NCBI GenBank assembly: GCA_050011835.1
Contig: JBEKII010000002.1
Span: 8,086 to 72,085 of the forward strand
Reading direction: 5' to 3'
Length of the DNA stretch: 64,000 bases
From: Minisyncoccia bacterium
Lineage (GTDB): Bacteria; Patescibacteriota; Minisyncoccia; Phycocordibacterales; Phycocordibacteraceae
The notes under the pieces were generated by a model. It was not told the origin of the DNA. It ran no database searches and saw only the letters and a list, made by a program, of their open reading frames with translations. A program made the translations under genes and the position numbers. Below, piece after piece: positions 1 to 55,754 of this stretch. Position 1 is the first letter of the stretch. Each line of letters opens with the position of its first letter.

Positions 1-1077
1 GAGGAAATCAAGGCGGGCAAATATAGCGGCATACTCACATGGGCACCGGATCGCATTTCTCGCAATGCAGGTGACTTGGGCAGAATCGTAGACCTGATGG
101 ATCAAGGCCGTCTGCACGATATTCGCACATACGGTCAGCGATTCACAAACAATCCGAATGAGAAGTTCTTGTTGATGATACTGGGGAGTCAGGCAAAATT
201 GGAGAACGACAACAAGCGCATCAACGTGAAGCGTGGATTACGCGCCAGAGTAGAGATGGGACTCTGGCCAGGAATAGCACCGACCGGATACTTGAACGAC
301 AGCCGGAAAGATCACAAATGTGAGATACTCGTCGATCCCATCCGCTCCCCCATCATCAGACAGGTCTTCGAGAAAATCGGCAACGAACGATGGAGCGGTC
401 GCAAGGTACACGCATGGCTCAAGTCGGACATCCGATTCATCTCTCGTTTTGGCAAAAGCATGAACCTGAGTACGCTATACAAAATGCTCAAGAATCCCTT
501 CTATTGCGGCGTCTTCGAATATCCGCGCGGCTCGGGAAATTGGTACACAGGAAAACATGCTCCGTTGATCACACAGGAATTATTTCAAGCGGTGCAGGAG
601 AAAATCGCTGAAGAGAATCGCCCCAAGACACGCTTCAAGGAATGGAACTTCACCAAACTCCTCCTCTGCGGATACTGTGGTTCCGGCATCACGGCGCAGG
701 AAAGAGCCAAAATATTGAGCACGGGCGAGCCCGTCTCCTATATCTATTATTCCTGCTCTCGCGCCAAGGACGTGAATTGCAAGAATCCGTATCTACGCGA
801 GGAGAAAGTGATCGAGCAACTCGCCGGTCTTATTGACCGCGTCTCCCTCGATGAAATCGGCGCGCGCCATCTCATTGAATGCGAGGTATCGCGATACAAC
901 AAGTTGCGGGCGGAAGTGGAAGGGAAAAGTGAAACAATCAAGGCGAAGGAGATGGATATTCGCAAGTACGCAAAGTATCTGCTGAAGAATGGATCGAGAG
1001 AGGAGAAACGCGAGTTGCTGGAACATCTGCGCGACCGCCTGATCTTAAATGACCGTATTATTACACCAGCTGATTAA
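1..1077 (+). CDS. Large serine recombinase / phage-type serine integrase. It is 5'-partial: the resolvase catalytic domain runs off the window start.
   Basis: In-frame translation from nt 1 gives [26 protein letters not shown], a resolvase-type catalytic-domain motif, continuous with the 76..1077 track ORF. Downstream are a recombinase domain, a Cys-rich zinc-ribbon region (CGYCGSG...YYSCS) and a coiled-coil C-terminus. Confidence 0.8.
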
Positions 1078-7794: not shown

Positions 7795-9039
7795 ATGGAT
7801 ACGAATGTAACAACGCCACAATCTGCGGCGCCTGCCGCTCCTCCTTTGCCAGAGGCTATGGAAGAACGCGGTGAACAGCCGAAAAGATATATTCGCACGT
7901 TCGCGGGCGATATGGCGATTTTGAAAAGCGGCGGCGTTCCCGATCTTGTCCCGCTCAAGGAATCGAAACCCTCGCCTATCGAGCGGCTCGTTGCGCCCTC
8001 ACCGATAGCATCTCCGATGACGAGCGAGCCAATCCCAGTTCCGGAGCCAGTGCCATCGCCTGTTCTACAACCGATTCAGCCCCCCGAGCCGATCGCTGTG
8101 TCGCCGATTGAAACGTACGCAAGCGATTTCTCCGAAAAAATGAAGAAGGAGGATGCGTCAACGGCAACGGTGCTCGCCGCCGAACAAGATGCGACATCGC
8201 AAAGGAGTCAACCGAAGCAAAGTTCTTCACGCGGCAACCTTCTATATGTTTTAGCCGGTTTGATACTTCTTATTGCAGGCGGCTGTGGCGCGTACATCGC
8301 TTATCTGCGCTACTCAACTTCGCTCGCGCCAGTCACACTCACTCCAACCGTTTCTGCGCCGATTTTTGTTGACGAACGCGAACAGATTTCCGGCACAGGC
8401 GTTGTTTTATTTCAGGCAATTGAACAGTCAATAAGCCGTCCACTCGCTTCCGGAGCGGTACGACTCCTCTACACCGAAGGCGCAACGACCACGGACAACA
8501 GCATCTTTTCTGCGCTCCAAACATCAGCGCCTGGCATTCTTCTCCGTAATGTAAACGCCGAAGGCAGTATGGCGGGGATTATAAATGTTGGCGGCACTCA
8601 AAGCCCGTTTTTCATACTTTCCGTCGCTTCGTATAGCGATACTTTTTCCGGCATGCTCTCGTGGGAGCCGCTAATGCCAAATGATCTCGCGGCGCTTTTC
8701 CCACCGTATCCGACGCCGATTTCAAATGTTTCAATAGCGACTTCAACTTCCGCGACTATGACAACAAAAACCGTAACAAAAACTATTAAAAAGACCACGA
8801 CGAGGACCGTGGCGAAAATCGCGACCACTACCGTGGCGATACCACCTGCTCCTGTGTTTATTGCCGGCTTTTATGATGAAGTCGTCAATAATCATGATGT
8901 GCGCGTTTATCGCGATGCCGAGAACCGAAGCGTTCTTCTTTACGGCTACTGGAATCAGACAACGCTTATTATCGCGCGCGACTCGGTAGCGTTTGCTGAA
9001 ATACTACAGCGGCTTGCAACCTCGCATACGCAGCAATAA
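7795..9039 (+). CDS. Proline-rich membrane-anchored hypothetical protein
   Basis: Pro-rich N-terminal region (PIPVPEPVPSPVLQPIQPPEP), a single TM helix (LLYVLAGLILLIAGGCGAYIAYL), then a large Thr/Ala-rich domain. Confidence 0.5.
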   Translation: MDTNVTTPQSAAPAAPPLPEAMEERGEQPKRYIRTFAGDMAILKSGGVPDLVPLKESKPSPIERLVAPSPIASPMTSEPIPVPEPVPSPVLQPIQPPEPIAVSPIETYASDFSEKMKKEDASTATVLAAEQDATSQRSQPKQSSSRGNLLYVLAGLILLIAGGCGAYIAYLRYSTSLAPVTLTPTVSAPIFVDEREQISGTGVVLFQAIEQSISRPLASGAVRLLYTEGATTTDNSIFSALQTSAPGILLRNVNAEGSMAGIINVGGTQSPFFILSVASYSDTFSGMLSWEPLMPNDLAALFPPYPTPISNVSIATSTSATMTTKTVTKTIKKTTTRTVAKIATTTVAIPPAPVFIAGFYDEVVNNHDVRVYRDAENRSVLLYGYWNQTTLIIARDSVAFAEILQRLATSHTQQ

Positions 9040-10123: not shown

Positions 10124-11461
10124 TTATTGCGGCTCGCACACAGAACCGGTGGGGCAATCGCGAAATGGATTTGCCGCGCCACGAACTTCAAAGTGGAGGT
10201 GCGGACCGGTGGACTCGCCGGTTGAGCCGACATAGCCAATGATTTGGCCGGACAAAACCGGCTGCCCGGGCGAGACGATTGAGTGAGTCATATGCGCGTA
10301 GAGCGTTTGCGTGCCGTTGTCGTGCGTGATGACGACATAATTGCCGTAGCCGCCGTTCCATGCGCCGTTATTGCGTGCGACGATAATCGTGCCGTCCGCG
10401 GCGGCGTGTATCGGCGTGCCGCGCGCGGCGCCGAGGTCCACCGCGTTCCAGCCGTGGAGGCCTTGCGTGAGGATAGCGCCCGGCACCGGATTGCTGTAGT
10501 AGCTCGCCTGTTCAGGACCGCTACCGCCCAAATATGGTTCGCGCGCAGCGCGCGAAGAGCGCGAGCTCGGCGCGGGAATGGAGAGTTCTCCGCCCGGAAT
10601 GATGATGGTTGAACCAACGGCGAGCGGCGCGGACGAGTCGAGGCCGTTAAATTGCGCAATTTCATTTGCATCAGCGCCGTATTTCTTCGCAATGGATTTC
10701 AGGGTATCGCCTTTTGCTACGATGCGTTCGGTACCTGAAACGGGCAGGATGATAAGCGTGTCGCCTGAGTGCACATCGTTTGCGCCACTCAAATTATTCG
10801 CCCAAATAATGGTATTTATTGAAACGCCAAACATGTCCGCAATTTCCGAAAGCGTGTCGCCCGAGCGAACTACATAGACCGAGATGCGGCCGGGCGGAGC
10901 TGAACTCGCGACGTCGGCAATCGTGCCGTCAGGGCCGCTGAAGGGAACGAGCGCCGAATCGTCAGAGGTGGAGAGTGCTATGGGTGCGTCCGCGTTTGGG
11001 TTGCTATTTAAAGTTGCTTGCAGTGTCGGAGTTGAAGAACTCGGAATAGAAGTATCGATTGCCGCATCGGCATTTGTGGAAAACGGCCAGAACGCATTCG
11101 CGCAGCTCGGCAGGAGCGTTATGGTGGCGACTGCGAGAGTCGCGAACCCTGCTATTATAAGAAATTGTTGTTTAAGTTTAATAGGTGGCAAGGGGGAGCG
11201 GTGGGTCTGTACATACAAGAATGGCTTACATACTCTCGTATATAAGCCATTCCTTGGATAACTTTCTATCAGTCGATAGAAGAAGTATAGCCGAGCGAAA
11301 CCGGTAGTCAACCGCTCCAGCGAGTGCCTGTGGAGAGTGCTTTGTGCGCTATATTCTGATAGTGAGATACCTTGAAGGATTGAATGACGCACAAAAGCGC
11401 GCCGTACTCGCCACCGACGGTCCGATTTTAGTCCTCGCGGGCGCCGGAAGCGGTAAAACAC
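10124..11461 (-). CDS. Secreted LysM-domain M23 metallopeptidase (peptidoglycan hydrolase)
   Basis: Two LysM repeats (YVVRSGDTLSEIA..., IVAKGDTLKSIAKKYG...) and a C-terminal M23 domain (HxxxD... GYVGSTGESTGPHLHFEV). The track ORF probably over-extends at the 5' end. The true start is likely near nt 11176-11191, just before the signal peptide KLKQQFLIIAGFATLAVA. Confidence 0.8.
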   Translation of the reverse strand: MFYRFRRPRGLKSDRRWRVRRAFVRHSILQGISLSEYSAQSTLHRHSLERLTTGFARLYFFYRLIESYPRNGLYTRVCKPFLYVQTHRSPLPPIKLKQQFLIIAGFATLAVATITLLPSCANAFWPFSTNADAAIDTSIPSSSTPTLQATLNSNPNADAPIALSTSDDSALVPFSGPDGTIADVASSAPPGRISVYVVRSGDTLSEIADMFGVSINTIIWANNLSGANDVHSGDTLIILPVSGTERIVAKGDTLKSIAKKYGADANEIAQFNGLDSSAPLAVGSTIIIPGGELSIPAPSSRSSRAAREPYLGGSGPEQASYYSNPVPGAILTQGLHGWNAVDLGAARGTPIHAAADGTIIVARNNGAWNGGYGNYVVITHDNGTQTLYAHMTHSIVSPGQPVLSGQIIGYVGSTGESTGPHLHFEVRGAANPFRDCPTGSVCEPQ

Positions 11462-13290
11462 GCGTTCTCACGACGCGGATTTATCACCTTATTCGCGAAG
11501 GAGTTCCCGCGGATCATATTCTCGCTGTCACGTTTACCAACAAGGCGGCGCGCGAGATGCGCGAGCGGGTGCGCGTCATGCTGGGAAATGACGGACCGCT
11601 CCCGTTCGTCGCCACCTTTCATGGTCTTGGTCGTGAAATTCTTGAAAGTTACGGAGGGGCGGCTGGAATCCCGCGTTTCTTCAGTATCTATGACCGCGCC
11701 GATTCGGAAAAGGCGATTGCCACGGCGCTTAAAACACTTGATGTTGGAGCGAAAGAGTTCTCGCCCCGCATGATATTGAGCCGTATCTCGCGTTTGAAGG
11801 GCGAAGGGATACGCGCGCAGGAGTTTTATGAGAAACGCGAACGCAGAGGTTTTAGCGCCCGCATTACTGCAGAGACATGGCTTCTCTATGAACAGATACT
11901 GCAAAAGGAGAAGGCACTTGACTTTGATGACCTTATCGCTTTGCCTGTCCAGCTACTTGAAGAAAACGACGATATTCGTGCGCGCATACAGGATCGCTGG
12001 CGCTATATTCACATTGACGAGTATCAAGATACGAATGAGTTGCAGGAACGATTCGCGGGTCTTCTCGTAGAGAAACACAGGAATCTTTTTGTTGTCGGCG
12101 ACGGAGACCAGGCAATATACGGATGGCGCGGGGCGAAAATGGAAAATATTTTGAATTTTGAAAAAAAATATCCCGAGGTGCAGACGATTATCCTTGAGCG
12201 TAACTATCGTTCAACGAAAAATTTGGTTGATGCGGCGAATGCGGTTATTGAGAAAAATAAAAATCGCAAAGAAAAATATTCAACAACCGAGCATTCGGCC
12301 GGCGAACCAATAATCGTTCATATGGCGATAAATGCCGAGGATGAAGCGCGGTGGATTGCGATGAAAATACGATGGTTGATGAAGGGCGGCATTGCTCCGG
12401 AAGAGATTGCAATACTTTTCCGTACTAATTTCCAATCGCGCGCGCTTGAAGAGGGATTGCTTACCGCCGGCGTGCCATATAAATTGCTCGGTACGCATTT
12501 CTTCGCGCGCAAAGAGGTGAAAGATGCGCTCGCATGGATGCACCTCGCACTGGATCCGTCGCGAGAGGCGGACAAGATTCGCGCGGCGGCTGCGCCGCCG
12601 CGCGGTATTGGCAAGATCACACTCGGTAAATTGGCGGCAGGACAGCGCGCGCACTTGCGCGCCGGCGAACTCGCGAAAGTTAAGCAATTTGAGAGTGTCA
12701 TCGCCGAACTCGAAAATGCTGCCCTTACGCTTGTACCGTCTGAATTCGTCAAACTCGTCATTGAAAAAAGTGGAATGCGTGATTATTATTTAGGACGAGG
12801 CCTGCTTGCTGGCAGGCAGGGAAGCGAGGAAGACCGGGAACGTTTTGAAAATGTTGAGGAGCTCGCCTCTGTTGCTGTGCGGCATGACAATGTCGCCGGT
12901 AAAGAGGGTATCGCTGCGTTTCTCGCCGAAGCCGCGCTCGCGAGCGACCAGGATGAAATGGACCGGGATGCAAAAACAGGAGTAATGCTGATGACCGTTC
13001 ATGCGGCAAAAGGGCTTGAATTCAATACCGTTTTCGTGAGCGGCATGGAAGAAGGTCTTTTCCCGCATGAAGGTTCGGGCGATGAGGACGACCGCGACGA
13101 AGAAGAGGAACGGCGCCTTTTTTATGTTGCGATGACGCGCGCGAAGGCGCGCCTTTACCTGACGTTCGCGCGCGTTCGCAAAATTTATGGCAGTGATTAC
13201 CTTACCGAGCCGTCTTCTTTTCTCGCCGATATTGATAATTCGTTAATGCTTTATGATGAAACTAATGGAGAAGAAATTATTCAGGCCTGA
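11344..13290 (+). CDS. UvrD/PcrA/Rep-family SF1 DNA helicase
   Basis: Walker A (AGAGSGKTRVL), motifs Ia-VI (TFTNKAAREM, DEYQDTN, VVGDGDQAIYGWRGA, VMLMTVHAAKGLEFNTVFV). Confidence 0.85.
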   Translation: MRYILIVRYLEGLNDAQKRAVLATDGPILVLAGAGSGKTRVLTTRIYHLIREGVPADHILAVTFTNKAAREMRERVRVMLGNDGPLPFVATFHGLGREILESYGGAAGIPRFFSIYDRADSEKAIATALKTLDVGAKEFSPRMILSRISRLKGEGIRAQEFYEKRERRGFSARITAETWLLYEQILQKEKALDFDDLIALPVQLLEENDDIRARIQDRWRYIHIDEYQDTNELQERFAGLLVEKHRNLFVVGDGDQAIYGWRGAKMENILNFEKKYPEVQTIILERNYRSTKNLVDAANAVIEKNKNRKEKYSTTEHSAGEPIIVHMAINAEDEARWIAMKIRWLMKGGIAPEEIAILFRTNFQSRALEEGLLTAGVPYKLLGTHFFARKEVKDALAWMHLALDPSREADKIRAAAAPPRGIGKITLGKLAAGQRAHLRAGELAKVKQFESVIAELENAALTLVPSEFVKLVIEKSGMRDYYLGRGLLAGRQGSEEDRERFENVEELASVAVRHDNVAGKEGIAAFLAEAALASDQDEMDRDAKTGVMLMTVHAAKGLEFNTVFVSGMEEGLFPHEGSGDEDDRDEEEERRLFYVAMTRAKARLYLTFARVRKIYGSDYLTEPSSFLADIDNSLMLYDETNGEEIIQA

Positions 13291-14137
13291 CGCTCGCCGA
13301 CAGGCCAAAAAGAGAGCGCTCCGGCCGCTAGGACAATTCAATTCTCTTTTTAACCTGTCAGCTTCGCGTCCAAAAAAATCGTTGGGACAAAATTTTTTGA
13401 TGCACGCGCGCATCGCGGAACGCATTGCAGATGCCGCGAAACTTTCACGAGACGCAACGGTGTTTGAAATCGGTCCCGGAACCGGCGTGCTCACCCGCGC
13501 GCTTCTAGAGCGCGCGGGCAAAGTAATCGCGGTTGAAGCGGACCGCGAACTTTTTGAAAAATTGCAATTTGATTTTGCAAACGAGATTACCGCCGGCCGA
13601 CTGAAACTCTTATATGGTGACGTGCGCTCGCTTGACATCGCCACTCTTCCAAAAGGTTACACGCTCGTTGCAAATATTCCATATTATTTGACCGGTGAAA
13701 TTTTCCGGAAGTTTCTTGAGTCAAAGAATCAGCCGAGCGCGATGACACTCCTCGTACAAAAAGAAGTCGCCGAACGCATCGCTCGCTCAAAAAAAGAAAG
13801 CATCCTTTCACTCTCTGTGAAGGCATACGGCACGCCGAAATACGAGTTCACTGTTCCGCGCGGAGCATTCAAACCCGCGCCGAAAGTGGATTCCGCAGTA
13901 CTCACTATTCAAAATATTTCACGAAAAAATTTTGCATTACGCTCGGGAGAGGAATTATTTTTCGCTCTGTTGCATGCAGGATTCGCACACAAGCGTAAGT
14001 TCGCGCGAAAGAATTTAGCTGATGCGGGATTTTCTGCCGAAAATATTCCAGAAAAAGCCCGCGCTGAAGACATCCCGATTGATCAATGGTTAGCCATCAC
14101 TCCTCTGGAGTCGGGGAAGAGCCTACCATCGGTGTAA
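13253..14137 (+). CDS. rsmA: 16S rRNA (adenine1518/1519-N6)-dimethyltransferase
   Basis: KSLGQNFL motif, SAM-binding FEIGPGTGVLT and NIPY motif. The 5' end overlaps the helicase 3' end, so the true start may lie a few codons downstream. Confidence 0.85.
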   Translation: MMKLMEKKLFRPDARRQAKKRALRPLGQFNSLFNLSASRPKKSLGQNFLMHARIAERIADAAKLSRDATVFEIGPGTGVLTRALLERAGKVIAVEADRELFEKLQFDFANEITAGRLKLLYGDVRSLDIATLPKGYTLVANIPYYLTGEIFRKFLESKNQPSAMTLLVQKEVAERIARSKKESILSLSVKAYGTPKYEFTVPRGAFKPAPKVDSAVLTIQNISRKNFALRSGEELFFALLHAGFAHKRKFARKNLADAGFSAENIPEKARAEDIPIDQWLAITPLESGKSLPSV

Positions 14138-15122
14138 TTGTGCCATCGGCAGGGACTACTACGCAAGTATAGCCGCTATAGGTCCAACACGATTGGATGC
14201 TCGGTATGTAGGTTCCAACCGCGGCGATGTCTTCTTCGGGTATGTTGTACCAAGAGAATGCTTCTGTATCGTCTACATAATCCAAGAGAAGGTTTGTAAC
14301 TAACGGATTCACATCCGGCAACACATCCGGCAATGCGACGAAGATTTGCGTTATTCCAGGAGAACAGTCACAAATTTCGGGGTTCACATATACAATAAAT
14401 CCGCCAAACGGTACTGTTAGTGGTGCCGCACGTGCTTTTCCTGCAGAAAAAGTTTCACCAACGAAGGAAAGTATCTTTTCAAGAAACGCCGCCATGGGTG
14501 ATGGGGGAATATCCCACGAAACTTTCTTCTCGTACGCCGCCCTTTGCTCATCGAAAAATTGTTGGCGGAAGTCGGTGGTCGTCGCAGCCTCTTTTCTTAT
14601 TTTGTCTTCGAGAAATAACAATTTATCTTGCGGAAAGCCTCCCTTGAGTGCGTCTTTTTTTACTGCGGCGAGATAGAGGTCGAGATTTTTTTGGTTAGGG
14701 TTCTGGGGAGTGGTTGCTGAAGCTGCGGACGTGGAAGAGGAAACATTCCCTACATTCATTGTTACCGCGGAAAGCACATTGAGTGTAGCTCTTGTATACG
14801 ATCCGACGTATCCGTTCCCTTGCGTGAGCCCGGCAGGCGCCAAAATTTCGCTCGCGTACTTTTCTTGGAATCGCACAACCGCCGCTTTTGTAAGAGGTCC
14901 AAAATAATTCGTCTCGTTTCCGGGAGAGCCCGGACCCACGCTTGCAATGCGCGTATCGGGGTCATGGTTGAGAATCTGTTGAAGTGCGATAACCTGCATT
15001 CCCGAAGAGCCGAGTGAGAGATTCGCTGTGAATATATTTGAAGTACTCGTCTGTGCACTCACGTAAGTTCCATACGAGAGCATAAGAAAAACGGTTACGA
15101 GAGAGAAGAACGAAACGCGCAT
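14097..15122 (-). CDS. Secreted protein with a peptidoglycan-binding-like domain and a Cys-containing C-terminal domain
   Basis: Signal peptide (VSFFSLVTVFLMLSYGTYVSA), a PG_binding_1-like segment (GMQVIALQQILNHD...YFGPLTKAAVVRFQEKY), and a C-terminal CDC...C region. Confidence 0.55.
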   Translation of the reverse strand: MRVSFFSLVTVFLMLSYGTYVSAQTSTSNIFTANLSLGSSGMQVIALQQILNHDPDTRIASVGPGSPGNETNYFGPLTKAAVVRFQEKYASEILAPAGLTQGNGYVGSYTRATLNVLSAVTMNVGNVSSSTSAASATTPQNPNQKNLDLYLAAVKKDALKGGFPQDKLLFLEDKIRKEAATTTDFRQQFFDEQRAAYEKKVSWDIPPSPMAAFLEKILSFVGETFSAGKARAAPLTVPFGGFIVYVNPEICDCSPGITQIFVALPDVLPDVNPLVTNLLLDYVDDTEAFSWYNIPEEDIAAVGTYIPSIQSCWTYSGYTCVVVPADGTITPMVGSSPTPEE

Positions 15123-15204
15123 GATTAAACAATAGCATAATGCACTTTTATGCAGTTGCAGTCATTATTTTCTTGTTGCGGCTGGTATACTTTAAAGCGA
15201 TACC

Positions 15205-16206
15205 ATGGGAAGGATTCTCGAACATTGGCGCGTACCTATCGCAGTGTTTTTTTCGGCGGCGCTTATTGTCGGCGCATATGTGCTTGCGCGCGGTGTCGGG
15301 TCGCCTTCCATTGCACAGGCCTCGACCGAGACGGCGCTTCTCCAGGCAATCGCGACGCGCGATTCAAATGGTGATGGCCTTCCCGATTGGGAGAAGGTGC
15401 TGTACGGCATCCCGATAAACGCTACTACAACGGATTATTTTCATCTCGGAATGACCGACGGCGAAGCGGTTGCGAAAGGGCTTGTTGTGCCCAAGGCGGT
15501 TGCCGATGTGCCTGTCGCAACATCAACCGCTGCGGTAAACGTCCCGGCCGAGGGCACGCTCACCGACACCTTCGCGAAAAATTTCTTTACGCTCTACATC
15601 ACAGCGAAAGAAGCGAATGGCGGCGATGACCTTACTGATGACCAGGTAAATGCGCTCGCCGACCAAGCGATGAATCAATTTTTGCAAACGGTCACATCGC
15701 CGCCTGATTTCAAAACCATAACGGACCTCAACGTTTCTGGGACAGGACCCGATGCATTACGTGCTTTCGCTATTGCAGCCGAGGGTGTGTTCAAGAAGAA
15801 TATGGGCAGTGCGACGACAAGCGAACTGCAATCTCTCCAAGATGCGGTGCTGAATAATGACGCAACGGCGCTCTCGCAACTTGCCGCGGCGTCTCAGATT
15901 TATCAAAACTATGCCGTTGGCCTTGCGGCGCTCCCGGTGCCGCAAGATCTCGCGGCAGACGACCTCGCGCTCATCAACGCGATGATGCTTAGAAGCGAGG
16001 CTGATGACAATCTTGCGCATGTGAATACCGACCCTTTAACGGCAATAGTTGCTCTTCAGCAATTCTCGCAAACGGAGAGTTCATTCTGGAATGCATTTGC
16101 CGATATTGGCGCTATCTATGCTTCCGCCGGTGTCGTGCTTCCTAACGGTACGCCGGGTTCGTCCCTTGTGAATGTCATCGCCAACGCGAGAGAAACAAGT
16201 CCATGA
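15205..16206 (+). CDS. Secreted/membrane-anchored hypothetical protein
   Basis: N-terminal signal/anchor (IAVFFSAALIVGAYVLA) and an Ala/Thr/Asp-rich mature region. No recognisable domain. Confidence 0.5.
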   Translation: MGRILEHWRVPIAVFFSAALIVGAYVLARGVGSPSIAQASTETALLQAIATRDSNGDGLPDWEKVLYGIPINATTTDYFHLGMTDGEAVAKGLVVPKAVADVPVATSTAAVNVPAEGTLTDTFAKNFFTLYITAKEANGGDDLTDDQVNALADQAMNQFLQTVTSPPDFKTITDLNVSGTGPDALRAFAIAAEGVFKKNMGSATTSELQSLQDAVLNNDATALSQLAAASQIYQNYAVGLAALPVPQDLAADDLALINAMMLRSEADDNLAHVNTDPLTAIVALQQFSQTESSFWNAFADIGAIYASAGVVLPNGTPGSSLVNVIANARETSP

Positions 16207-17816
16207 GTAAGAAAACTTTCGCCAGTGCGCTCGCGATACTGCTTATCATCGCGCTTACTGTACCCGCAATATTTTTTATTGCGCCACAGAGAGCATCTGC
16301 ACAATCTGTTGGCAGTTGTATCGTGGGTTTAGCAGCCGGTCTTGGATTGGTCACCGCGAATCATGTAGTTGCTGTTCCTACTGCGGACGCAGCGGGCGGA
16401 ACGGGCAGCTGGACCACAGCTGGCTCAACGGTGGGGAATTGTTTATATAGCGTGATAGTCGTGCCCATCCTGCGAGCGATGATACGAGCGATTCTGCAAG
16501 CCATTACCCAAAGCACCATCAATTGGATCAACGGCGCCAACGGTACGGGCCAACCCTCCTTTGTGCAGAATCTCGCTGTGCATCTGCAGAGCGTCGGGGA
16601 TGTCGCCGCGCTTTCCCTCATCGCCCAAATTGGCCAGAATACGGCCGCGTTCAACTCGCCCTTCGGCGCCGCGATCGCGTTAGCGCTCCAGAGCCGTTAT
16701 GCCCAACAAACGAGCTTAGCCGGCTTTTATGCGGCGAATCAATGCACGCTTGCCAAATCATCGCCGAATGTAGCGGGATTTCTTGGAGGCGAGTGGTCAC
16801 AGGGCGGGGCGGCCGCATGGTTCGCGCTCACCACCCAGAATCAAAATAATCCCTACACGCTCTATCTGGCGGCGCAGAGCCAGCTGGGCAGTAATGTGAG
16901 CCAAGTGCAAACCAATCGAAAACAGGACCTGATGCAGTCGGGAGGATTTCTCTCGTGGTGTCCTCCCGGCGCAACGGCCAATACCACCTCATCAAGCGTG
17001 GGCGTCAAGCCGCAAGCCCCTTGCACCAACGCGAACGGCACGCCGGCTATGGCCCAGACACCAGGGTCAACCATCAAATCCTACCTAGATACAAATCTTG
17101 GCTCGGGCATTGGCCAGTTAGTCAGCGCTCAAGACCTTGATGCCGCACTCGGCGCGATTGTGACGGCGCTCGGGAACAGAGTTATCGGTAGTACCGGTCT
17201 CTTCGGGTCCTCGCAACCTTCGGGTAGCCGTAACATAACAGTAGTCGCTCCTGCGCCAAGTAGTTCAGCCGCATCCGCCATTTCACTTGCACAATCGACG
17301 CTTACACAGCTCGCAACCTATACGAGCGCGTGGAACACCATTAGTGCTGCGGCGAATACGGCGTCAATGAGCGTTACAGCTCTCTTGAACTCCTGTTCCG
17401 CTCAACAGACAATCGCGCAGACCGCTCTCACAAATGAGATTGCGCCGATGCTCGTGCAGGCGCAGGCGGCACTCAATTCCGCCGCAACCACTCAAGCACT
17501 TGCGCTTCAAGTCCAAGCCGAGGCCTCGGCAGTTCCCATCGCAGACCCGGTTCAGTTAAGTACTGATGTGACGTCGCTCTCATCAATGCCTCCCGCGGCA
17601 GGCGATGTTGTTAATGCGCAATTGAGCGCGGCTGTAACCGGCGCCGCCACCGCGAACCCCGCGGGCTCGCTCACGGTCTCTGGCGGCACGTTTGTCGACC
17701 AGATGAATCTCATCAGTACGAATGCCGCGGCGCTCGAAACATCCTCATGCGCCACACCATCTGCTCCAGCCGTATCGTCCCCAACAACAATCTACAACGC
17801 GGGCGTCGGCGGATAA
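16203..17816 (+). CDS. Large secreted Ala/Ser/Thr/Gln-rich hypothetical protein
   Basis: Signal peptide (ASALAILLIIALTVPAIFFIAPQRASA). It is translationally coupled to the upstream gene by a 4-nt overlap. Composition is low-complexity and surface-protein-like. Confidence 0.5.
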   Translation: MSKKTFASALAILLIIALTVPAIFFIAPQRASAQSVGSCIVGLAAGLGLVTANHVVAVPTADAAGGTGSWTTAGSTVGNCLYSVIVVPILRAMIRAILQAITQSTINWINGANGTGQPSFVQNLAVHLQSVGDVAALSLIAQIGQNTAAFNSPFGAAIALALQSRYAQQTSLAGFYAANQCTLAKSSPNVAGFLGGEWSQGGAAAWFALTTQNQNNPYTLYLAAQSQLGSNVSQVQTNRKQDLMQSGGFLSWCPPGATANTTSSSVGVKPQAPCTNANGTPAMAQTPGSTIKSYLDTNLGSGIGQLVSAQDLDAALGAIVTALGNRVIGSTGLFGSSQPSGSRNITVVAPAPSSSAASAISLAQSTLTQLATYTSAWNTISAAANTASMSVTALLNSCSAQQTIAQTALTNEIAPMLVQAQAALNSAATTQALALQVQAEASAVPIADPVQLSTDVTSLSSMPPAAGDVVNAQLSAAVTGAATANPAGSLTVSGGTFVDQMNLISTNAAALETSSCATPSAPAVSSPTTIYNAGVGG

Positions 17817-17820
17817 TAAT

Positions 17821-20034
17821 ATGCCACGCACCCTCATCACTTCGTTCGCCGCTCTCATTCTTGTCATAGGCGCGGCGGGCGCGTTCGCGCCTGCCGCACA
17901 TGCCGCTCCACCCGCCAACTGTAATACCGGGAACAGGAGCTTGGGACAACTATGTTGTAGCAATGATTACTGTGATTCCACCTCTGGTTTGACTTGTAAC
18001 ACAACCAGTTACACCTGTGTCAACAGCACCGGCAACGCTGGCCCGAGCGTCACCAACCCGACCAGTCCCGCCGCTCAAGGGACACCGATATTATCGAGTG
18101 ACCTGGATTCTGGGTACAACCTCATCATGGTCAAAATTATGGGCCTCTTTGCGTGGCTCGTCGGCGTCTCGGCGATTACGCTTGACAACGTTGTGTATTA
18201 CACCGTTGTCGTAATGGGGAACTATGTAAAAGGTCTCACGGCTGTAGGCGTCACCTGGCGCATTTTGCGCGACCTGGCCAACATCGGGCTTATATTCGGC
18301 TTTATCGGGGCAGGTATCGCAACGATACTTGATGTTGAGAAATATGGGTGGGGTACGAAAATGCTTCCGATGCTTTTGGTCGCCGCGGTCGTCCTTAATT
18401 TTTCACTTTTTATTTCTGAAGCAATGATTGACGCCACCAATCTCTTTGCGACCGAATTCTATACGCAAATTAACGGTGGCGTGCCGGCAGGAACACAAGA
18501 ATTGAACTTTGATAACATCAAAAACGCTCAAAATAATGGCATTGCAAACAAGATTATGGGGCAGTTAGGTCTTCAGACCATCTATGGCAATGCGATAACG
18601 AATCCACAAATTTTCCAGGGCGCTAATCCGTGGTTCGTCGGCTTTATGGGCGTTATACTTTTTCTCGTCACCGCATTTGTGATGTTTTCGCTCGCATTTA
18701 TACTCATTATACGTTTCGTCGCGCTCATTTTCCTCATTCTTCTCTCCCCGGTCGGTTTTATGGGACTCGCGATACCCCAGCTAAAGTATCGAGCAGGTCA
18801 GTGGTGGACTAATTTCCTTGAGCAAATTGTCGTCGCGCCGGTCCTGCTGCTCTTGCTCTACGTGGCTCTTGCGGTTATCACTGATGCACAGTTTCTCACC
18901 GGTTTTGGCGCGACTAAAAACCCCAACGCATGGACTGGTTGGGCCGCTTCCGGAGGTCTCACCGGCTTCGCAGGCCTATTACTCTCTTTCCTCGTTGCGA
19001 TTGGGCTCCTTCTGGTGGTTGTTATCAAGGCAAAAAGCATGTCTGCCGCCGGCGCCAACTGGGCGACGAAGACCGCGGGAAAACTCACTTTCGGGGTAAC
19101 GGCATCAGTTGGACGCCGCACTGTTGGTCGCGCATCTAATTATACTGCGCGCAAGATTCGTTCCAGTGAGTGGGGCCAGCATAGCGAGCTGGGCCGGATG
19201 TTTGCCGGACTTGCCGACCGCGGAGCGAAAGCGAGTTTTGATGTGCGCGGTGCCGTAGGCGGTAGTTTGAAGAGTTATGTTGACGTTGGAGCCGCGCAAA
19301 AGGGCGGCTATCGAGCGCGAGAAGAAGAATTAATTAACGCCAGGACCGAATATGCCAAGTCGCTACGCCAATCGCCGGAACAAATAAAAATGGTTGAAGA
19401 TGCCACTGATGCGAAAAAGAAAGCAGGAGAGGAATATAAGAAAAATATGGCTCCACTCGAGGCGGAAGAGCAAAAACAACTCAAAATAACAAAAGAGATT
19501 GTTGACGCAAGCAATGAAGAGCTTAAACTTGAACGGAAAAAACTCGAAGAAGCGCGTCAGTCGTCGCCTTCTATGAACCCATACCGTGATTATCAGATTA
19601 AAACATACGAAGCGGCATATAATGAGAAATTACTTGCGCACCAAAAGCTCCAGGAAGAAGAAAGCAAGAAACTAGATCCAATCCGCACGAAAATTGAGGA
19701 TGAGAAGAAACACTATACAGGCGTAATCACCAAGCAACAAGAAATTATTGATAAGAATACAAAGGGAGGTATTCAAAAGGAGTACGCAGAATCGCTACAG
19801 GAAAAAACACTTCTTGGAATTCCGCGTGCGCCGTATGACTGGACAACAGCGGTCGGTTCGGCTCGGCACGAAGCGGCTGGTAAAATTCTTGGCGAGTTAA
19901 AGAAGGACCCAACCCAAATAGCCGTGGAAAAGCTTCAAGCTGCAGTAGAAAAAGCGGAGAAAGTAACAGGCCCACGCAGTGAGGAAAAGAAGGGGGGAAG
20001 TAAACCAGAAAATACGGAAAAGAAACCCACATAA
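17821..20034 (+). CDS. Polytopic membrane protein with VirB6/TrbL-like architecture. It has a signal peptide, a Cys-rich ectodomain, ~6 TM helices and a long K/E-rich coiled-coil tail.
   Basis: Start refined to the Met before the signal peptide (MPRTLITSFAALILVIGAAGAFAPAAHA). There is a Cys-rich segment (CNTGNRSLGQLCCSNDYCDSTSGLTCNTTSYTC) and multiple long hydrophobic helices. The C-terminal ~330 aa are charged coiled-coil. The topology resembles TrbL/VirB6 conjugal-transfer proteins. This is a structural inference, not a motif match. Confidence 0.5.
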   Translation: MPRTLITSFAALILVIGAAGAFAPAAHAAPPANCNTGNRSLGQLCCSNDYCDSTSGLTCNTTSYTCVNSTGNAGPSVTNPTSPAAQGTPILSSDLDSGYNLIMVKIMGLFAWLVGVSAITLDNVVYYTVVVMGNYVKGLTAVGVTWRILRDLANIGLIFGFIGAGIATILDVEKYGWGTKMLPMLLVAAVVLNFSLFISEAMIDATNLFATEFYTQINGGVPAGTQELNFDNIKNAQNNGIANKIMGQLGLQTIYGNAITNPQIFQGANPWFVGFMGVILFLVTAFVMFSLAFILIIRFVALIFLILLSPVGFMGLAIPQLKYRAGQWWTNFLEQIVVAPVLLLLLYVALAVITDAQFLTGFGATKNPNAWTGWAASGGLTGFAGLLLSFLVAIGLLLVVVIKAKSMSAAGANWATKTAGKLTFGVTASVGRRTVGRASNYTARKIRSSEWGQHSELGRMFAGLADRGAKASFDVRGAVGGSLKSYVDVGAAQKGGYRAREEELINARTEYAKSLRQSPEQIKMVEDATDAKKKAGEEYKKNMAPLEAEEQKQLKITKEIVDASNEELKLERKKLEEARQSSPSMNPYRDYQIKTYEAAYNEKLLAHQKLQEEESKKLDPIRTKIEDEKKHYTGVITKQQEIIDKNTKGGIQKEYAESLQEKTLLGIPRAPYDWTTAVGSARHEAAGKILGELKKDPTQIAVEKLQAAVEKAEKVTGPRSEEKKGGSKPENTEKKPT

Positions 20035-20039
20035 TAACT

Positions 20040-20870
20040 ATGGCTGAACTCACTTTAGAAGAAAGCATTCAACAGATATTTCCAACGCTCCCGTTGCCAC
20101 TCCAGAAATTTTTTGAACAACGTGGGCCTAGCGAAACCGCGCATCTCCTTATGGAACGATATGCGCTCCACGTAGACCAAGGAACGATTCTTGAACAAGA
20201 ACTCATGTTTCTTCTTCTCGGTCTTAGGAGTCCGGATGAATTTGCGGAAGAACTATATGCGCAGTTACCCATATCGAGACAAACCGTTCTGGATATAATC
20301 ACCGACGTTAATCAAGAAGTTTTCGTTCCGTTGCGGGAAGAAGAAATGAAAAGTGGCGGGGCGAGGATGGAGCAGCAAGTAAAATCCGCGGCGGCGTCTG
20401 CGCCGCCGCGACCAATGAACATACCAGTGCCAAACTATGCGCCACGCCCGCCCGAAGTCAGCAAACCACCGGGCGTAATGGAACCGCCCCCGCAATCCCC
20501 GACATATTTTCACTCGGAGGATAGAATCGTTTCACAACCCATCATCTCCGTAATCCGCCCGCCGGCAGGCGGGAGCGAAAGAAGACCTCCTCGTCCTGTT
20601 GTAACGGCACCCGCTCGTCCTTTGCCGAGAGTTACGGATGACGCAGCGAAGCCGATGCCTGATGAAAAGCTTCTTGAAGATCATGAAGAGGCACATATTA
20701 ATTTTGATAAAACATCAGTACCGCCGAATCTTCCGGGAGTACTACCGTCTATCCAGCCGAAACCTACTCCTCCCGTTGCTTCCATTCCTTCTGCCCCTCC
20801 TCCTATCTCATCAAAACCTTATTCCGTTGACCCGTACCGCGAGCCGATTGATGAAAATAGCAATGCGTAG
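20040..20870 (+). CDS. Proline-rich hypothetical protein
   Basis: Globular N-terminal 100 aa, then a PxxP-rich disordered region. No TM. It follows the VirB6-like gene after 5 nt. Confidence 0.5.
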   Translation: MAELTLEESIQQIFPTLPLPLQKFFEQRGPSETAHLLMERYALHVDQGTILEQELMFLLLGLRSPDEFAEELYAQLPISRQTVLDIITDVNQEVFVPLREEEMKSGGARMEQQVKSAAASAPPRPMNIPVPNYAPRPPEVSKPPGVMEPPPQSPTYFHSEDRIVSQPIISVIRPPAGGSERRPPRPVVTAPARPLPRVTDDAAKPMPDEKLLEDHEEAHINFDKTSVPPNLPGVLPSIQPKPTPPVASIPSAPPPISSKPYSVDPYREPIDENSNA

Positions 20871-20911: not shown

Positions 20912-20946
20912 CGCGCCTGCCTGCGCAGGCAGGGGTCTTCTTTTTC
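20912..20946 (+). terminator. Rho-independent terminator upstream of rpsL
   Basis: CCTGCCTGC-GCAGGCAGG hairpin followed by a GGTCTTCTTTTTCTC U-tract. Confidence 0.5.
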
Positions 20947-43453: not shown

Positions 43454-44098
43454 ATGTGGCGCGTAGTATACTTAAGCGCCATGCTGCTTCAGACACGCTC
43501 TCAACAGAGTGATGACGCATCAGATGAGGAGATTGTTCACCGGGCACTTCTCGATAAGGAAGCATTCGCGCTCATCATCGAACGCTATGAAGCGAAACTT
43601 GCGCGCTATCTTGAGCGACTTGGTGTCGGCGTTCTTGAAGACCGCGAAGATATTCTGCAAAATGCGTTCGTTAAAGCATACAAAAACCTTAATAGCTTTG
43701 ACCCGACGCTCGCGTTTTCTTCGTGGATGTATCGCATTGCGCACAATGAAGCGATGAGTTTCTTCCGCGCGAAACACGCTCGACCGCAGGTTGTTTTAAG
43801 CGAGGAAGGTGAAGCGCTCATTACGGAATTGGAAGACGAGGATACCGACACCTCTCGTGTTGCGGAAGCTCGGCTTTCTCAGGAAGAGCTCGCAAAAGCC
43901 TTTGCGAAACTTTCTCAAGCATATCGTGATGTTCTTACCCTGCGTTTTTTTGAGAATCGTTCATATACCGAAATGTCTGATATTCTGGAATTGCCGGTGG
44001 GGACGATTTCTACGCTCCTCTATCGCGCCAAACGTGCTTTGCGCGCCGCAATGCCGAACTCATTTTATCATGATGACACACAACGACCACAACAATGA
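43454..44098 (+). CDS. ECF-type sigma-70 family sigma factor
   Basis: Region 2 (ILQNAFVKAYKNLNSFD...FSSWMYRIAHNEA) and region 4 HTH (LTLRFFENRSYTEMSDILELPVGTISTLLYRAKRAL). Confidence 0.85.
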   Translation: MWRVVYLSAMLLQTRSQQSDDASDEEIVHRALLDKEAFALIIERYEAKLARYLERLGVGVLEDREDILQNAFVKAYKNLNSFDPTLAFSSWMYRIAHNEAMSFFRAKHARPQVVLSEEGEALITELEDEDTDTSRVAEARLSQEELAKAFAKLSQAYRDVLTLRFFENRSYTEMSDILELPVGTISTLLYRAKRALRAAMPNSFYHDDTQRPQQ

Positions 44099-44954
44099 CC
44101 CTCTCTCGCAGCGTGTGTTTCAGCGCATTGCAGGCGAGCACCTTGTCCCGCGCCCGCGCTGGGAGTTTAGAATAAAGAACTATTTTTTCTGGACGCTTGG
44201 AGCGTGCGCGGTCGTACTCGGCGCGCTCGCATTCTCGGCAACGCTCTTTGAGATTACGAATGTTGATTGGCGCCTTTCAGTCGCAACGCACCCGAGCTTC
44301 TTTTCCTTTTTTCTCGCCGCCGCGCCCTTCCTCTGGGTGTTCGCGCTCGCATTTTTTATCGCCGTTGGATATGTAAATATTCGCCAAACCAACCACGGTT
44401 ATCGCTATTCGCTCGCAATCATCGCGCTGGGCGCGGTGCTTATGTCGCTTACTCTCGGCAGCGGTCTTTATGTTGCCGGTCTCGGCGGCGTCATTGAAGA
44501 ATCCATCGGTGACCATCCGCCATTTTATCGCCCCATTCTTCTTGAGGAGCGCTCGTGGTGGTTGGCGCCGGAAAGGGGGCTTTTGGTGGGGGATGTGATG
44601 AACGTTGCGCCCGACATCACTTCATTCGTTCTTCGTGATTTCTCGGGGCGATTCTGGGAAGTTGAGGGAAGCGACTTGCATAATCCTGACCTCGCCGCCG
44701 TCGCGCGCGGCGGAGTCGTGCGCGTCGTTGGTGTGCCAGCACAGGAAGGTGCGTCCGCTTCAACGACAATGTCCTTTCATGCTTGTTTCGTATTTCCTTG
44801 GGAGGCAGAGAGGCCCAGAAATAAACCGCTTCCGCTACCTCTCGCGGCGATCGCTTCTTCTAGTGAAAGGAGTGCGACGACAACGTCCAGTGAGGAATGT
44901 AGAAACATTCGTCCTTATCGGCAGCTTCGTAGCATTGATGATGCGGGTTTCTAA
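44070..44954 (+). CDS. Putative anti-sigma factor / membrane protein
   Basis: Start refined to MMTHNDH, overlapping the sigma-factor stop by 29 nt as is typical for sigma/anti-sigma pairs. Four TM helices, then an extracytoplasmic domain. Confidence 0.55.
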   Translation: MMTHNDHNNDPLSQRVFQRIAGEHLVPRPRWEFRIKNYFFWTLGACAVVLGALAFSATLFEITNVDWRLSVATHPSFFSFFLAAAPFLWVFALAFFIAVGYVNIRQTNHGYRYSLAIIALGAVLMSLTLGSGLYVAGLGGVIEESIGDHPPFYRPILLEERSWWLAPERGLLVGDVMNVAPDITSFVLRDFSGRFWEVEGSDLHNPDLAAVARGGVVRVVGVPAQEGASASTTMSFHACFVFPWEAERPRNKPLPLPLAAIASSSERSATTTSSEECRNIRPYRQLRSIDDAGF

Positions 44955-45335: not shown

Positions 45336-45371
45336 TTGCATAGAGCGAATAAAGCGCGTATCCTAGGCACC

Positions 45372-45866
45372 ATGAAACGTACTGGTGTTGTACTCATTAT
45401 GGTACTTGCATTTTGCGGTCTTTCCGATTCGGTCTATATCGCACAAAATGAGACGAGTCATACACCGCTCCTCTGTAATGTTAATAATCTTTCCGGATGC
45501 AACATCGTCGCTTCAAGTCAGTACGCGCACCTCTTCGGGATTCCGCTCGCCGAGTACGGCGCGCTCTTCTACGCCCTCATTTTTATTATTGCCGCTTTGG
45601 AAATCATCGTCTTTGACCAATTGCTTCGCCGCGTACTTCAAGGACTTTCACTCGTCGGCATTCTCATATCCCTTTACCTCACTTTCCTTGAGATATTCGT
45701 CATACGCGCGTTATGCATTTATTGCCTCGTGTCTGCTTGTATTGCGCTTCTCATCTTCGTCCTCGCCTGTCTCATAGAGCCGATACGACCAATCAAAGGA
45801 TGGTCCGCCTCCGGCGAAAAAAAGACAGAAACACCGCCGCCGCACCTTTCAATGCCGCCTGTCTAG
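45372..45866 (+). CDS. Vitamin K epoxide reductase (VKOR) family protein
   Basis: CNVNNLSGCNIVASSQYAHLFGIP (loop cysteine pair) and the active-site CIYC in a TM helix. Confidence 0.75.
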   Translation: MKRTGVVLIMVLAFCGLSDSVYIAQNETSHTPLLCNVNNLSGCNIVASSQYAHLFGIPLAEYGALFYALIFIIAALEIIVFDQLLRRVLQGLSLVGILISLYLTFLEIFVIRALCIYCLVSACIALLIFVLACLIEPIRPIKGWSASGEKKTETPPPHLSMPPV

Positions 45867-45874
45867 CAATTATT

Positions 45875-47041
45875 ATGAATCGCCATTCTTTCATCTTGCT
45901 CGTTTTGGTTCTTCTCCCCGCGAGCGCTTTTGCGGCGCACGCACCCGCGTCTTTCTCGGCGGCGCGTTCGCTTCTCGCCGCGAGCTCCTCGCCCGGGAAC
46001 GCCTATGTTGCCGGTTTCTCGGTTGTAACTACCGCGCCGGTTTCTGGTGACCTTTCAGCTATCGGCGGCAGTATCGTCATCGCCGCGCCGGTTTCTGGCG
46101 ATGAACTTCTCTTCGCTGGTTCTTTGAGTTCGCGCGCGCCGGTTTCTGGTGATTTTCGGGCGGCGGGCGGAAACATCACTGTTGAGAAACCAATCGCAGG
46201 AGACCTCATTGCTTTCGGCCTCTCCGTGAATGACTCTGGCCGTGCCGGCGGAAGTATTTTCATTGCTGCCCTGAATGCCGCTTTGATTGATGGCGCATCA
46301 GGCCCGGTTACCATTTATGGCAATAATGTTTCGCTCGCCGGCGATTTTTCAGGCAATATAGATGTCGTTACAAGTGGCCGTCTGACACTTGCGCCAGGCA
46401 CCACAATCCACGGCATTCTCTCTTATGAAGCACCCGAAGCGGCGTTCATTCCCGCATCCGCGGCGATAATCGGCGGAATTGACTACAGAAATGTCTCTTA
46501 TCTGCCGAATGCCGGGACATCGCGAGCACTCGCATTCGTGAGCGTCGGATTTTTCCTTTTCGTTCGCATTCTTGGGGCTCTCGTTCTCGCTGGTCTTCTC
46601 GCTGGTCTTTTCCCGCGGCTTGCGGAAATGATTACCGACTACGCGTACACAGCGCGTCCGCGCGGCATTCTGCTTACGATGCTGCTTGGCTTCGCGATAC
46701 TTGTCGCGACGCCGATTCTTTCCGTTGTACTTCTCCTGACATTCGTCGGTGTCGGCATCGCGCTTCTCGTTTTTATTCTCTACGCCTTGTTGGTATTTCT
46801 TTCTCTTATGTACGCGGGAATTCTTCTTGGCGGCATACTCGCGCGCCGTTACGCGCGGCGCGAGACCGTTCTGTGGCACGATGGCGTGCTCGGCATGTTC
46901 ATACTCTCGCTTATCGCGCTGGTGCCGTTTGTCGGTTTTTTTGCAGTGCTTCTTCTCACCATTTTTTCTACAGGGGCTCTTTCATCCATATTTTTTGATT
47001 TTGCTTTTCCACACGAAGAGCAAACGCCCGAGTTGTTATGA
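45875..47041 (+). CDS. Secreted repeat protein (bactofilin/polymer-forming-like APVSGD repeats) with a C-terminal polytopic membrane domain
   Basis: Signal peptide, then four APVSGD(L/E/F) repeats, then ~6 TM helices. Confidence 0.55.
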   Translation: MNRHSFILLVLVLLPASAFAAHAPASFSAARSLLAASSSPGNAYVAGFSVVTTAPVSGDLSAIGGSIVIAAPVSGDELLFAGSLSSRAPVSGDFRAAGGNITVEKPIAGDLIAFGLSVNDSGRAGGSIFIAALNAALIDGASGPVTIYGNNVSLAGDFSGNIDVVTSGRLTLAPGTTIHGILSYEAPEAAFIPASAAIIGGIDYRNVSYLPNAGTSRALAFVSVGFFLFVRILGALVLAGLLAGLFPRLAEMITDYAYTARPRGILLTMLLGFAILVATPILSVVLLLTFVGVGIALLVFILYALLVFLSLMYAGILLGGILARRYARRETVLWHDGVLGMFILSLIALVPFVGFFAVLLLTIFSTGALSSIFFDFAFPHEEQTPELL

Positions 47042-55746: not shown

Positions 55747-55754
55747 TTGCAAAG

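Follow-up and report, generated by a model that had tools for sequence, protein, structure and literature searches.

A highly divergent, probable VirB6/TrbL-like membrane protein and three partner families in a conserved chromosomal operon beside rpsL of Kaiserbacteria-type Patescibacteria

The 64,000-nucleotide stretch analyzed here (the window; contig JBEKII010000002.1 of a Minisyncoccia bacterium, assembly GCA_050011835.1, positions 8,086 to 72,085) carries, between ksgA and rpsL, a compact unit of four forward-strand genes (15205-20870) that we call g2, g3, g4 and g5. The third, g4 (17821-20034, +), encodes a 737-aa polytopic protein that is very probably a strongly diverged member of the VirB6/TrbL superfamily, and we propose, with a probability of roughly 55%, that the products of g2-g5 form the VirB6-type platform of a chromosomal type IV secretion system (T4SS) of this lineage, whose ATPase would be encoded elsewhere in the genome. 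Judged from sequence, the source organism is a Kaiserbacteria-type bacterium from the candidate phyla radiation (CPR, Patescibacteria; class Paceibacteria), and its nearest relatives carry the names Candidatus Kaiserbacteria or Paceibacterota. The window also belongs to JGI metagenome contig Ga0427919_0000197 (169,847 bp), and the g3 product is on deposit as a hypothetical protein from a 'Minisyncoccia bacterium' MAG. An earlier note on this DNA had singled out g2-g5 together with an upstream gene, g1, and all five open reading frames (ORFs) were recovered at their positions; the VirB6/TrbL likeness that it saw in the polytopic protein is borne out by Pfam, Foldseek and hhalign in agreement, though below the curated Pfam threshold.

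The assignment of g4 to the superfamily follows from the agreement of four lines of evidence, namely the Pfam TrbL profile, structural comparison by Foldseek, and profile-profile alignment by hhalign with two separate sets of VirB6 proteins. On the window protein, TrbL gives an E-value of 0.18 and 12.0 bits (cut-off 25.9) and spans profile positions 27-211 of 215; among the 67 orthologs scanned, in-register matches were found in 15 (best E 2.2e-5) and TrbL_4 matches in three, with no other Pfam family recurring in more than two. An AlphaFold (AF2) model of g4 was built from 72 homologues (mean pLDDT 78.8), and when it was compared with the PDB, chains of TrwI, the VirB6 of plasmid R388, occupied ranks 1, 2, 3, 5 and 6, the top match (8rt9_F) reaching a probability of 0.98, but an E-value of 0.13 and a TM-score of 0.45.

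The profile-profile comparisons point to the same region of the protein. Aligned to ten MPF_T VirB6 proteins from plasmids, which served as the canonical set, the g4 family scored 36.3 (P 1.3e-3) on a transmembrane (TM) hairpin, the best of 13 controls with reversed or shuffled profiles scoring 22.9, and in this alignment P310 and W328/W329, invariant in g4, fall on Pro181 and Trp199, invariant in VirB6. The best profile-profile match was obtained with a Gram-positive reference alignment of eight Orf15-type proteins (Tn916 Orf15 and relatives on Bacillus, Paenibacillus and Staphylococcus plasmids), at a probability of 59%, a P of 9.1e-5 and a score of 47.4 (best of 11 such controls, 29.1), over 228 collinear columns from TM1 to TM5. 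Canonical VirB6 and the Orf15-type set score 49.6 against each other, so that by this measure the distance of g4 from the Gram-positive VirB6 class is about the one that separates this class from textbook VirB6. By these alignments g4 is closest to the long Gram-positive Orf15/ConG class, to which ICEBs1 ConG and pCW3 TcpH belong. Searches of family profiles by hmmsearch against all ORFs of R388, of pCF10/Tn916 and of seven Firmicute plasmid regions returned no match, so the relationship between g4 and VirB6 is seen by profile-profile methods alone. Aligning the family profiles to the single sequences of TrwI, TrwJ and PrgH was uninformative, and single Orf15 gave a P of 0.015; the g4 family profile retrieved only coiled-coil noise from PDB sequences, and Pfam and NCBIfam scans of the five window proteins gave nothing beyond weak PG_binding_1 and TrbL matches.

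The architecture of g4, for which signal peptide and topology were judged from hydropathy and AF2 helices, comprises four parts. A conserved signal peptide (residues 1-27; 17821-17901, +), with its hydrophobic segment at residues 5-23 and an ortholog consensus of ...GAAGAAPxAHA, is followed by a small hypervariable extracytoplasmic domain (residues 28-95; 17902-18105, +) that is modeled with low confidence (pLDDT <50 at residues 18-47 and 71-93). The Cys-rich ectodomain described in the earlier note exists in the window protein, with six Cys at positions 34, 45, 46, 51, 59 and 66, but is not a constant of the family, as ortholog ectodomains hold 0, 2, 3, 4, 6, 8 or 12 Cys; such variation is as expected for an exposed surface part. 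The VirB6/TrbL-like membrane domain (residues 96-404; 18106-19032, +) contains about seven hydrophobic helices (range 6-8) by hydropathy and AF2, rather than the six or so first counted, a central hydrophilic loop (residues 200-274), and invariant motifs that include RD..N, NFSLF, RF...P310 and W328/W329. The protein thus shows the topology of VirB6/TrbL proteins, with at least five TM helices, a central hydrophilic loop and a C-terminus predicted to be cytoplasmic. The tail (residues 405-737 and the stop codon; 19033-20034, +) consists of a conserved juxtamembrane segment (…GAKASFDVRG…GGY) and a long K/E-rich antiparallel helical hairpin, with AF2 helices at residues 519-580 and 589-646 (pLDDT >95), and is positively charged (K44, E39, R19 and D12 over 333 residues). 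The long tail is therefore real and helical in the model, the lengths of 738 and 330 aa first given for protein and tail becoming 737 and 333; for it, PDB and fold searches gave only insignificant matches of coiled-coil type (e.g., F-BAR and Vipp1).

As called by JGI (P0001, 635 aa), g4 begins at the internal Met103, which leaves out window positions 17821-18126. Orthologs keep the signal peptide (AAPxAHA) encoded there, so the protein is probably truncated in the deposited annotation.

Among known systems, the Gram-positive 'long' VirB6 proteins of the Orf15 class (640 to >1,000 aa) share with g4 a build in which a polytopic N-terminal domain precedes a large and hydrophilic C-terminal one, a TM hairpin with the motif P-[VI]-[GS]-F, and a monoderm cell envelope of the hosts. 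The gene context differs: in the eight Firmicute regions, Orf15-type genes immediately follow a VirB4 gene and a gene for a small protein, mostly precede a peptidoglycan (PG) hydrolase, and are located on plasmids or integrative conjugative elements (ICEs), whereas g4 is chromosomal and lies between novel genes beside rpsL with no ATPase nearby. The cleavable-looking signal peptide, the variable Cys-rich ectodomain and the K/E-rich helical hairpin tail also set g4 apart from this class. As for PG enzymes at the g4 locus, g1 has a PG-binding domain only and is optional, and a LysM/M23 peptidase is separated from the module by uvrD and ksgA. The top structural match, R388 TrwI (PDB 8rt9/7o3v; PF04610), is a protein of 342 aa without a long tail, and its gene, unlike g4, has virB5/eex on one side and virB8 on the other, within a full virB operon; in the alignment of g4 with VirB6, two extra g4 helices (residues 148-199) fall opposite a gap. 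Neither g2 nor g3 is like TrwJ/VirB5, and no VirB5 partner was therefore recognized.

The T4SS of Patescibacteria (MPF_FATA-related; PMC12102498, PMC12857230) share with the module the phylum, the chromosomal location and the lack of a link to a relaxase, and a virB6 gene is essential in Ca. Southlakia epibionticum (PMC12102498, PMC12857230). They differ in setting, since 304 of 480 VirB6 genes lie within 20 coding sequences of virB4, with TrsD, PrgI/VirB3 and arrays of VirB2 pilins (PMC12102498), none of which is found near g4, and the components described for these systems do not include g2, g3 or g5 (PMC12102498, PMC12857230). The hydrophilic C-terminus of g4 fits both the Gram-positive 'long' type and the 'extended' VirB6 proteins, e.g., the Rickettsiales paralogues, in which a VirB6 core is likewise joined to large hydrophilic domains of unknown role (PMC12857230). 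Set beside g4 by description, the Rickettsiales proteins belong to diderm intracellular bacteria and have far larger extensions that are unrelated in sequence; in Rickettsia, the genes of the T4SS lie dispersed over the genome (PMC12102498).

The two genes preceding g4 encode putative exported proteins. Both g2 (15205-16206, +; 333 aa), predicted to be N-terminally anchored or secreted, and g3 (16203-17816, +; 537 aa) begin with a hydrophobic segment, and the start of g3 overlaps the stop of g2 as ATGA, in line with the translationally coupled, signal-bearing pair seen earlier. Of the low complexity then ascribed to them, the richness in Ala is borne out (17-18% of each), but g3, rather than being a low-complexity sequence, is predicted to be folded and mostly alpha-helical (mean pLDDT 72), with a helical bundle at residues 354-515 (pLDDT >95), and carries conserved Cys. 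In g2, a TSP3-type calcium-binding motif, DSNGDGLPDWEK, directly follows the anchor and precedes a conserved Ala-rich region; a TSP3_bac repeat was found in 35 of 54 orthologs scanned individually against Pfam, and no other Pfam family recurred among these 54, nor was there a sequence relative in the PDB. For g3, no Pfam family recurred among the orthologs, no sequence relative was found in the PDB, and the model retrieved only generic helical bundles and no significant fold match from the PDB or BFVD.

Several identities were tried for g2 and g3 and rejected. Compared with VirB5 (TrwJ), they gave hhalign P-values of 0.2-0.5; as VirB2 pilin, VirB5 or known adhesin, their profiles match nothing in R388 or Gram-positive T4SS regions; and a VirB8-like protein of NTF2 fold is at odds with the all-helical model of g3. 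Their description as surface substrates, pilins or adhesins thus found no support, the g3 model lacking a fold match to VirB5, VirB8 and pilin among others.

The last gene, g5 (20040-20870, +; 276 aa), encodes a predicted cytoplasmic protein devoid of hydrophobic or TM segments, and is Pro-rich (17%), as had been stated. In an alignment of 60 orthologs, the first 100 aa or so form a conserved domain, which a Pro-rich linker joins to the peptide Y-x-x-DPYREP (residues 264-269, nt 20829-20846), invariant at the C-terminus. The DPYRE motif occurs once per locus, solely in g5 among all ORFs of the locus, and neither scans of the orthologs nor searches with the family profile found Pfam or PDB relatives. 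From this layout, we infer that g5 would be a cytoplasmic adaptor with a tethered binding peptide.

The gene upstream of the unit, g1 (14097-15122, -), encodes an accessory secreted protein of 341 aa with an N-terminal hydrophobic, signal-like segment, a PG_binding_1-like domain at residues 43-89 (E 1.5e-4, with 22.3 bits where the cut-off is 23) and, C-terminally, a domain with four Cys that belongs to no known family; its sole sequence match in the PDB is the PG-binding part of 1lbu. It is convergent with ksgA, the two 3' ends overlapping by 41 nt. The earlier note had counted g1 as part of the module, but since only 27 of 84 related loci carry it, g1 is an optional PG-binding neighbor and not a core member, the conserved unit being g2-g5.

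A homologue of VKOR (vitamin K epoxide reductase, a DsbB-like disulfide-forming enzyme; E 3.7e-26) is encoded at 45336-45866 (+), which makes exported disulfide-bonded proteins plausible in this organism. Its neighbors include an extracytoplasmic function (ECF)-type sigma factor, with 43454-44098 (+) listed alongside, and unannotated ORFs at 43809-44954 and 45713-47041; an unusually negative AT skew (-0.226) marks the stretch at 44-46 kb.

We studied the inheritance of the module in regions around g4 relatives from two metagenome contigs and 80 species-representative genomes, with the window genes mapped onto 84 loci (L001-L084). The order M23/LysM-uvrD-ksgA-[g1]-g2-g3-g4-g5-rpsL-rpsG-fusA is kept throughout these loci (about 80 species-level genomes), and uvrD, ksgA and rpsL flank the module in every locus examined. 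We found g2 in 74, g3 in 79 and g5 in 76 of the 84 loci, the missing cases coinciding with contig ends. The genes are tightly packed, with a 4-nt overlap between g2 and g3 followed by gaps of 4 and 5 nt, and both the overlap and the short g3-g4 and g4-g5 gaps recur across related loci; g2 always lies immediately 5' of g3 and is 40-68% identical among loci. Overall, the module proteins are 30-60% identical among loci, compared with about 90% for S12 and 88% for EF-G, a faster divergence than that of the housekeeping neighbors, which is usual for envelope proteins.

The TM domain of g4 is 47-69% identical to the window protein over the 150 best representative clusters, all of them orthologs, and a close g4 relative is encoded in 315 species genomes. 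A phmmer search with this domain against 1.84 billion representative proteins retrieved 653 clusters when the limit was E<=1e-30, rising to 5,717 for E<=1e-10 and to 12,312 for E<=1e-3, by which counts the close g4 family appears to sit within a very large superfamily. No relative of the module was found in a scan of IMG/VR viral contigs, and no paralogue in the window or in 86 fetched loci. Given the fixed gene order and the lack of viral relatives and of paralogues, g2-g5 is, as far as sequence comparison can tell, a vertically inherited chromosomal operon and not a mobile element. A terminator-like GC hairpin followed by a T-rich tail (20916-20943, +; consensus scan only) lies between g5 and rpsL (start 20949; then rpsG and fusA) and suggests that g2-g5 are transcribed apart from the str operon. 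The promoter and terminator consensus scans performed at chance level, the total of sites in the region not exceeding the shuffled expectation, so this hairpin is weak evidence.

We now turn to what the module might do. If the proposal of a VirB6-type platform is correct, g4 would, like VirB6, form oligomers in the cytoplasmic membrane. The variable ectodomain of g4 would make up the outward-facing part together with the exported g2 and g3, and its helical tail, joined by g5 as Pro-rich adaptor, would link up with partners in the cytoplasm. Such a complex would serve the chromosomal, non-conjugative T4SS of Patescibacteria, thought to act in host interaction, and the VirB4 ATPase of that system would be encoded elsewhere in the genome. 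The published survey of the phylum leaves room for such a component: VirB4 occurs in 2,417 of 3,035 Patescibacteria genomes, and 480 VirB6 homologues face 2,474 VirB4 homologues, extreme divergence of VirB6 being invoked for the classes in which it is scarce or absent (PMC12102498). From this deficit and this divergence, undetected VirB6 genes are to be expected, and the module may supply the VirB6 part that has until now escaped detection in the secretion machine of this lineage. In the accessible entries of Table S1, VirB4 is scored present in 6/6 module-carrying genomes (PMC12102498). This weakens the idea, raised in the earlier note, of a reduced system devoid of an ATPase. That note had held that its reading would fall if TrbL similarity were lacking and no T4SS ATPase existed anywhere in the genome; as far as both points could be tested, TrbL similarity was found and VirB4 was scored in the related genomes.

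A number of observations weigh against this platform proposal. No VirB4, VirD4, VirB3, TrsD or pilin gene was found in the 84 kb of contig examined, that is, the window plus 10 kb on each side (the flanks through precomputed Pfam annotation); for VirB4 and VirD4 in the window this agrees with the earlier claim, the scan against Pfam covering 40 ORFs with every one of at least 414 aa included, and the large ones being UvrD, EF-G, RNase J, SBP, restriction-modification enzymes and similar proteins. VirB6 genes normally adjoin virB4, and g4 departs from that rule. Two related loci (L001 and L003) have no T4SS gene in their annotation within 10 kb of the orthologs; at the other loci, none was found among the representatives scanned of ten unassigned ORFs of at least 350 aa, a screen by which small components could be missed. 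Pfam families of VirB3/PrgI, TrsD, VirB2 or VirB8-like proteins were absent from the scans of g1-g5 and their orthologs, and g2, g3 and g5 resemble no known T4SS component in profile, Pfam and PDB searches, nor does g3 in the fold search. The search of PF04610 that the earlier note had suggested gave consistent in-register matches, but none above the gathering score in any of the 67 orthologs (best TrbL 24.8 against 25.9; best TrbL_4 26.6 against 27). The profile of the g4 TM domain misses TrwI, Orf15 and PrgH in profile-to-sequence searches, and tblastn with this domain against PLSDB plasmids gave no match. Finally, the VirB4 data come from other module-carrying genomes, the part of the source genome examined being these 84 kb, and their 6/6 co-occurrence does not discriminate, because VirB4 is scored present in about 20 of 22 Kaiserbacteria among the entries listed in the accessible part of the same table (PMC12102498), a base rate of about 90%.

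Many of these observations would suit an autonomous envelope complex, in which a VirB6-type scaffold has been exapted together with g2, g3 and g5 and needs no T4SS ATPase, with possible roles in surface or host-attachment architecture or in envelope organization. We consider this the main rival, possible but rather unlikely. The strict housekeeping location and vertical inheritance beside the str operon in about 80 species speak for it, as do the lack of a T4SS gene near any locus examined, the partner proteins without T4SS counterparts, the single copy per genome with no nearby paralogue, and the fact that the operon itself encodes an adaptor-like protein of the cytoplasm whose C-terminal peptide is tethered. 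Against it stand the scoring of VirB4 in this lineage in the accessible entries of the survey (PMC12102498) and the fact that nothing positive points to another function. It also speaks against it that every VirB6-family protein characterized to date works, to our knowledge, within a T4SS (for a review, see PMC12857230). A more specific version, which we find less likely still and put forward as a speculation, is that of a VirB4-independent surface machine made of a VirB6-type membrane ring, two new exported families and a tethered-peptide adaptor; with the same reserve, this machine might be a core Kaiserbacteria organelle for host-cell contact or exchange.

Less credible than either is the idea that g4 is an unrelated, transporter-like polytopic membrane protein whose resemblance to VirB6 arises from chance or from convergence of hydrophobic helices. 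It draws on the weakness of each score taken singly (Pfam below the cut-off, a Foldseek E-value of 0.13 with a TM-score of 0.45, hhalign probabilities of 18-59%) and on the negative profile-to-sequence searches. Yet four independent methods converge on one family and on the same region, the alignments are collinear and centered on the same conserved Pro and Trp, all 24 of the 24 reversed or shuffled controls score below the real comparisons, and no transporter family emerged from the Pfam, NCBIfam and PDB searches; we thus judge this explanation improbable. The least probable, to which we give hardly any weight, is that an integrated conjugative element has decayed here, its ATPases and relaxase being lost: although Firmicute Orf15-type VirB6 genes belong to ICEs or plasmids, between a VirB4 gene and a PG-hydrolase gene, and other parts of the window hold recombinases and an integrative element, the module has ORFs that are intact and identically placed in about 80 species, a TM domain 47-69% identical to that of the window protein over the 150 best representative clusters, no mobile-element genes flanking it, an unremarkable GC content and no IMG/VR relative, and neither an adjacent relaxase, integrase or coupling protein nor the patchy distribution of an ICE was found.

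Other features of the contig surround the module. Upstream lie ksgA (13253-14137), uvrD (11344-13290) and a LysM/M23 peptidase gene (10124-11461, -), all assigned by ORF and Pfam; in 54 of 84 loci the peptidase keeps this relative place as the third gene upstream of the module. The uvrD ORF of six loci (L015, L041, L053, L068, L069 and L071) reaches about 1,000 aa instead of the usual 648 aa or so, possibly through an intein insertion. The peptidase is preceded by a gene for a 414-aa protein (7795-9039, +) with no family above threshold (DUF5876, 18.4 bits against a cut-off of 25); other loci have a ComM-like Mg-chelatase gene at that position, of which only a 36-aa fragment is present here (2381-2491 of the upstream flanking sequence L085). 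Further away, a type III restriction-modification pair (53965-58337, +) consists of a Mod methylase (N6_N4_Mtase and TypeIII_RM_meth) followed by a Res helicase subunit. A probable integrated element lies just before groES/groEL (61582-63718, continuing past the window end at 12112-13516 of L086) and contains a Prim-Pol protein, a 488-aa ORF without family, an HTH_17 excisionase-like gene and a tyrosine integrase. Before the window start (L085, 11039-19944), a serine recombinase of 441 aa, of which window positions 76-1077 are a part, adjoins a reverse transcriptase (RVT_1) and bAvd, a set that looks like a diversity-generating retroelement; an AAA_5/CobT_C (MoxR-vWA-like) pair then extends to the contig end.

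The VirB6 family and the T4SS of Patescibacteria are known already; the divergent extended VirB6 variant, its position at the str operon, its separation from virB4 and the three partner families are not described in the two studies of these systems (PMC12102498, PMC12857230). These points matter because the sole genetically tractable Patescibacterium requires T4SS genes for its epibiotic growth (PMC12102498, PMC12857230), and because surveys find a VirB6 for only about one fifth of the VirB4 genes of the phylum (PMC12102498). Conserved, single-copy and divergent, g4 is a concrete candidate for the undetected VirB6 of a large CPR lineage, and g2, g3 and g5 are new candidate components. Should the module operate independently of VirB4, the range of roles known for the VirB6 fold would grow; and if the reading as a surface machine were true, g4 would be the first VirB6-family protein acting outside a T4SS.

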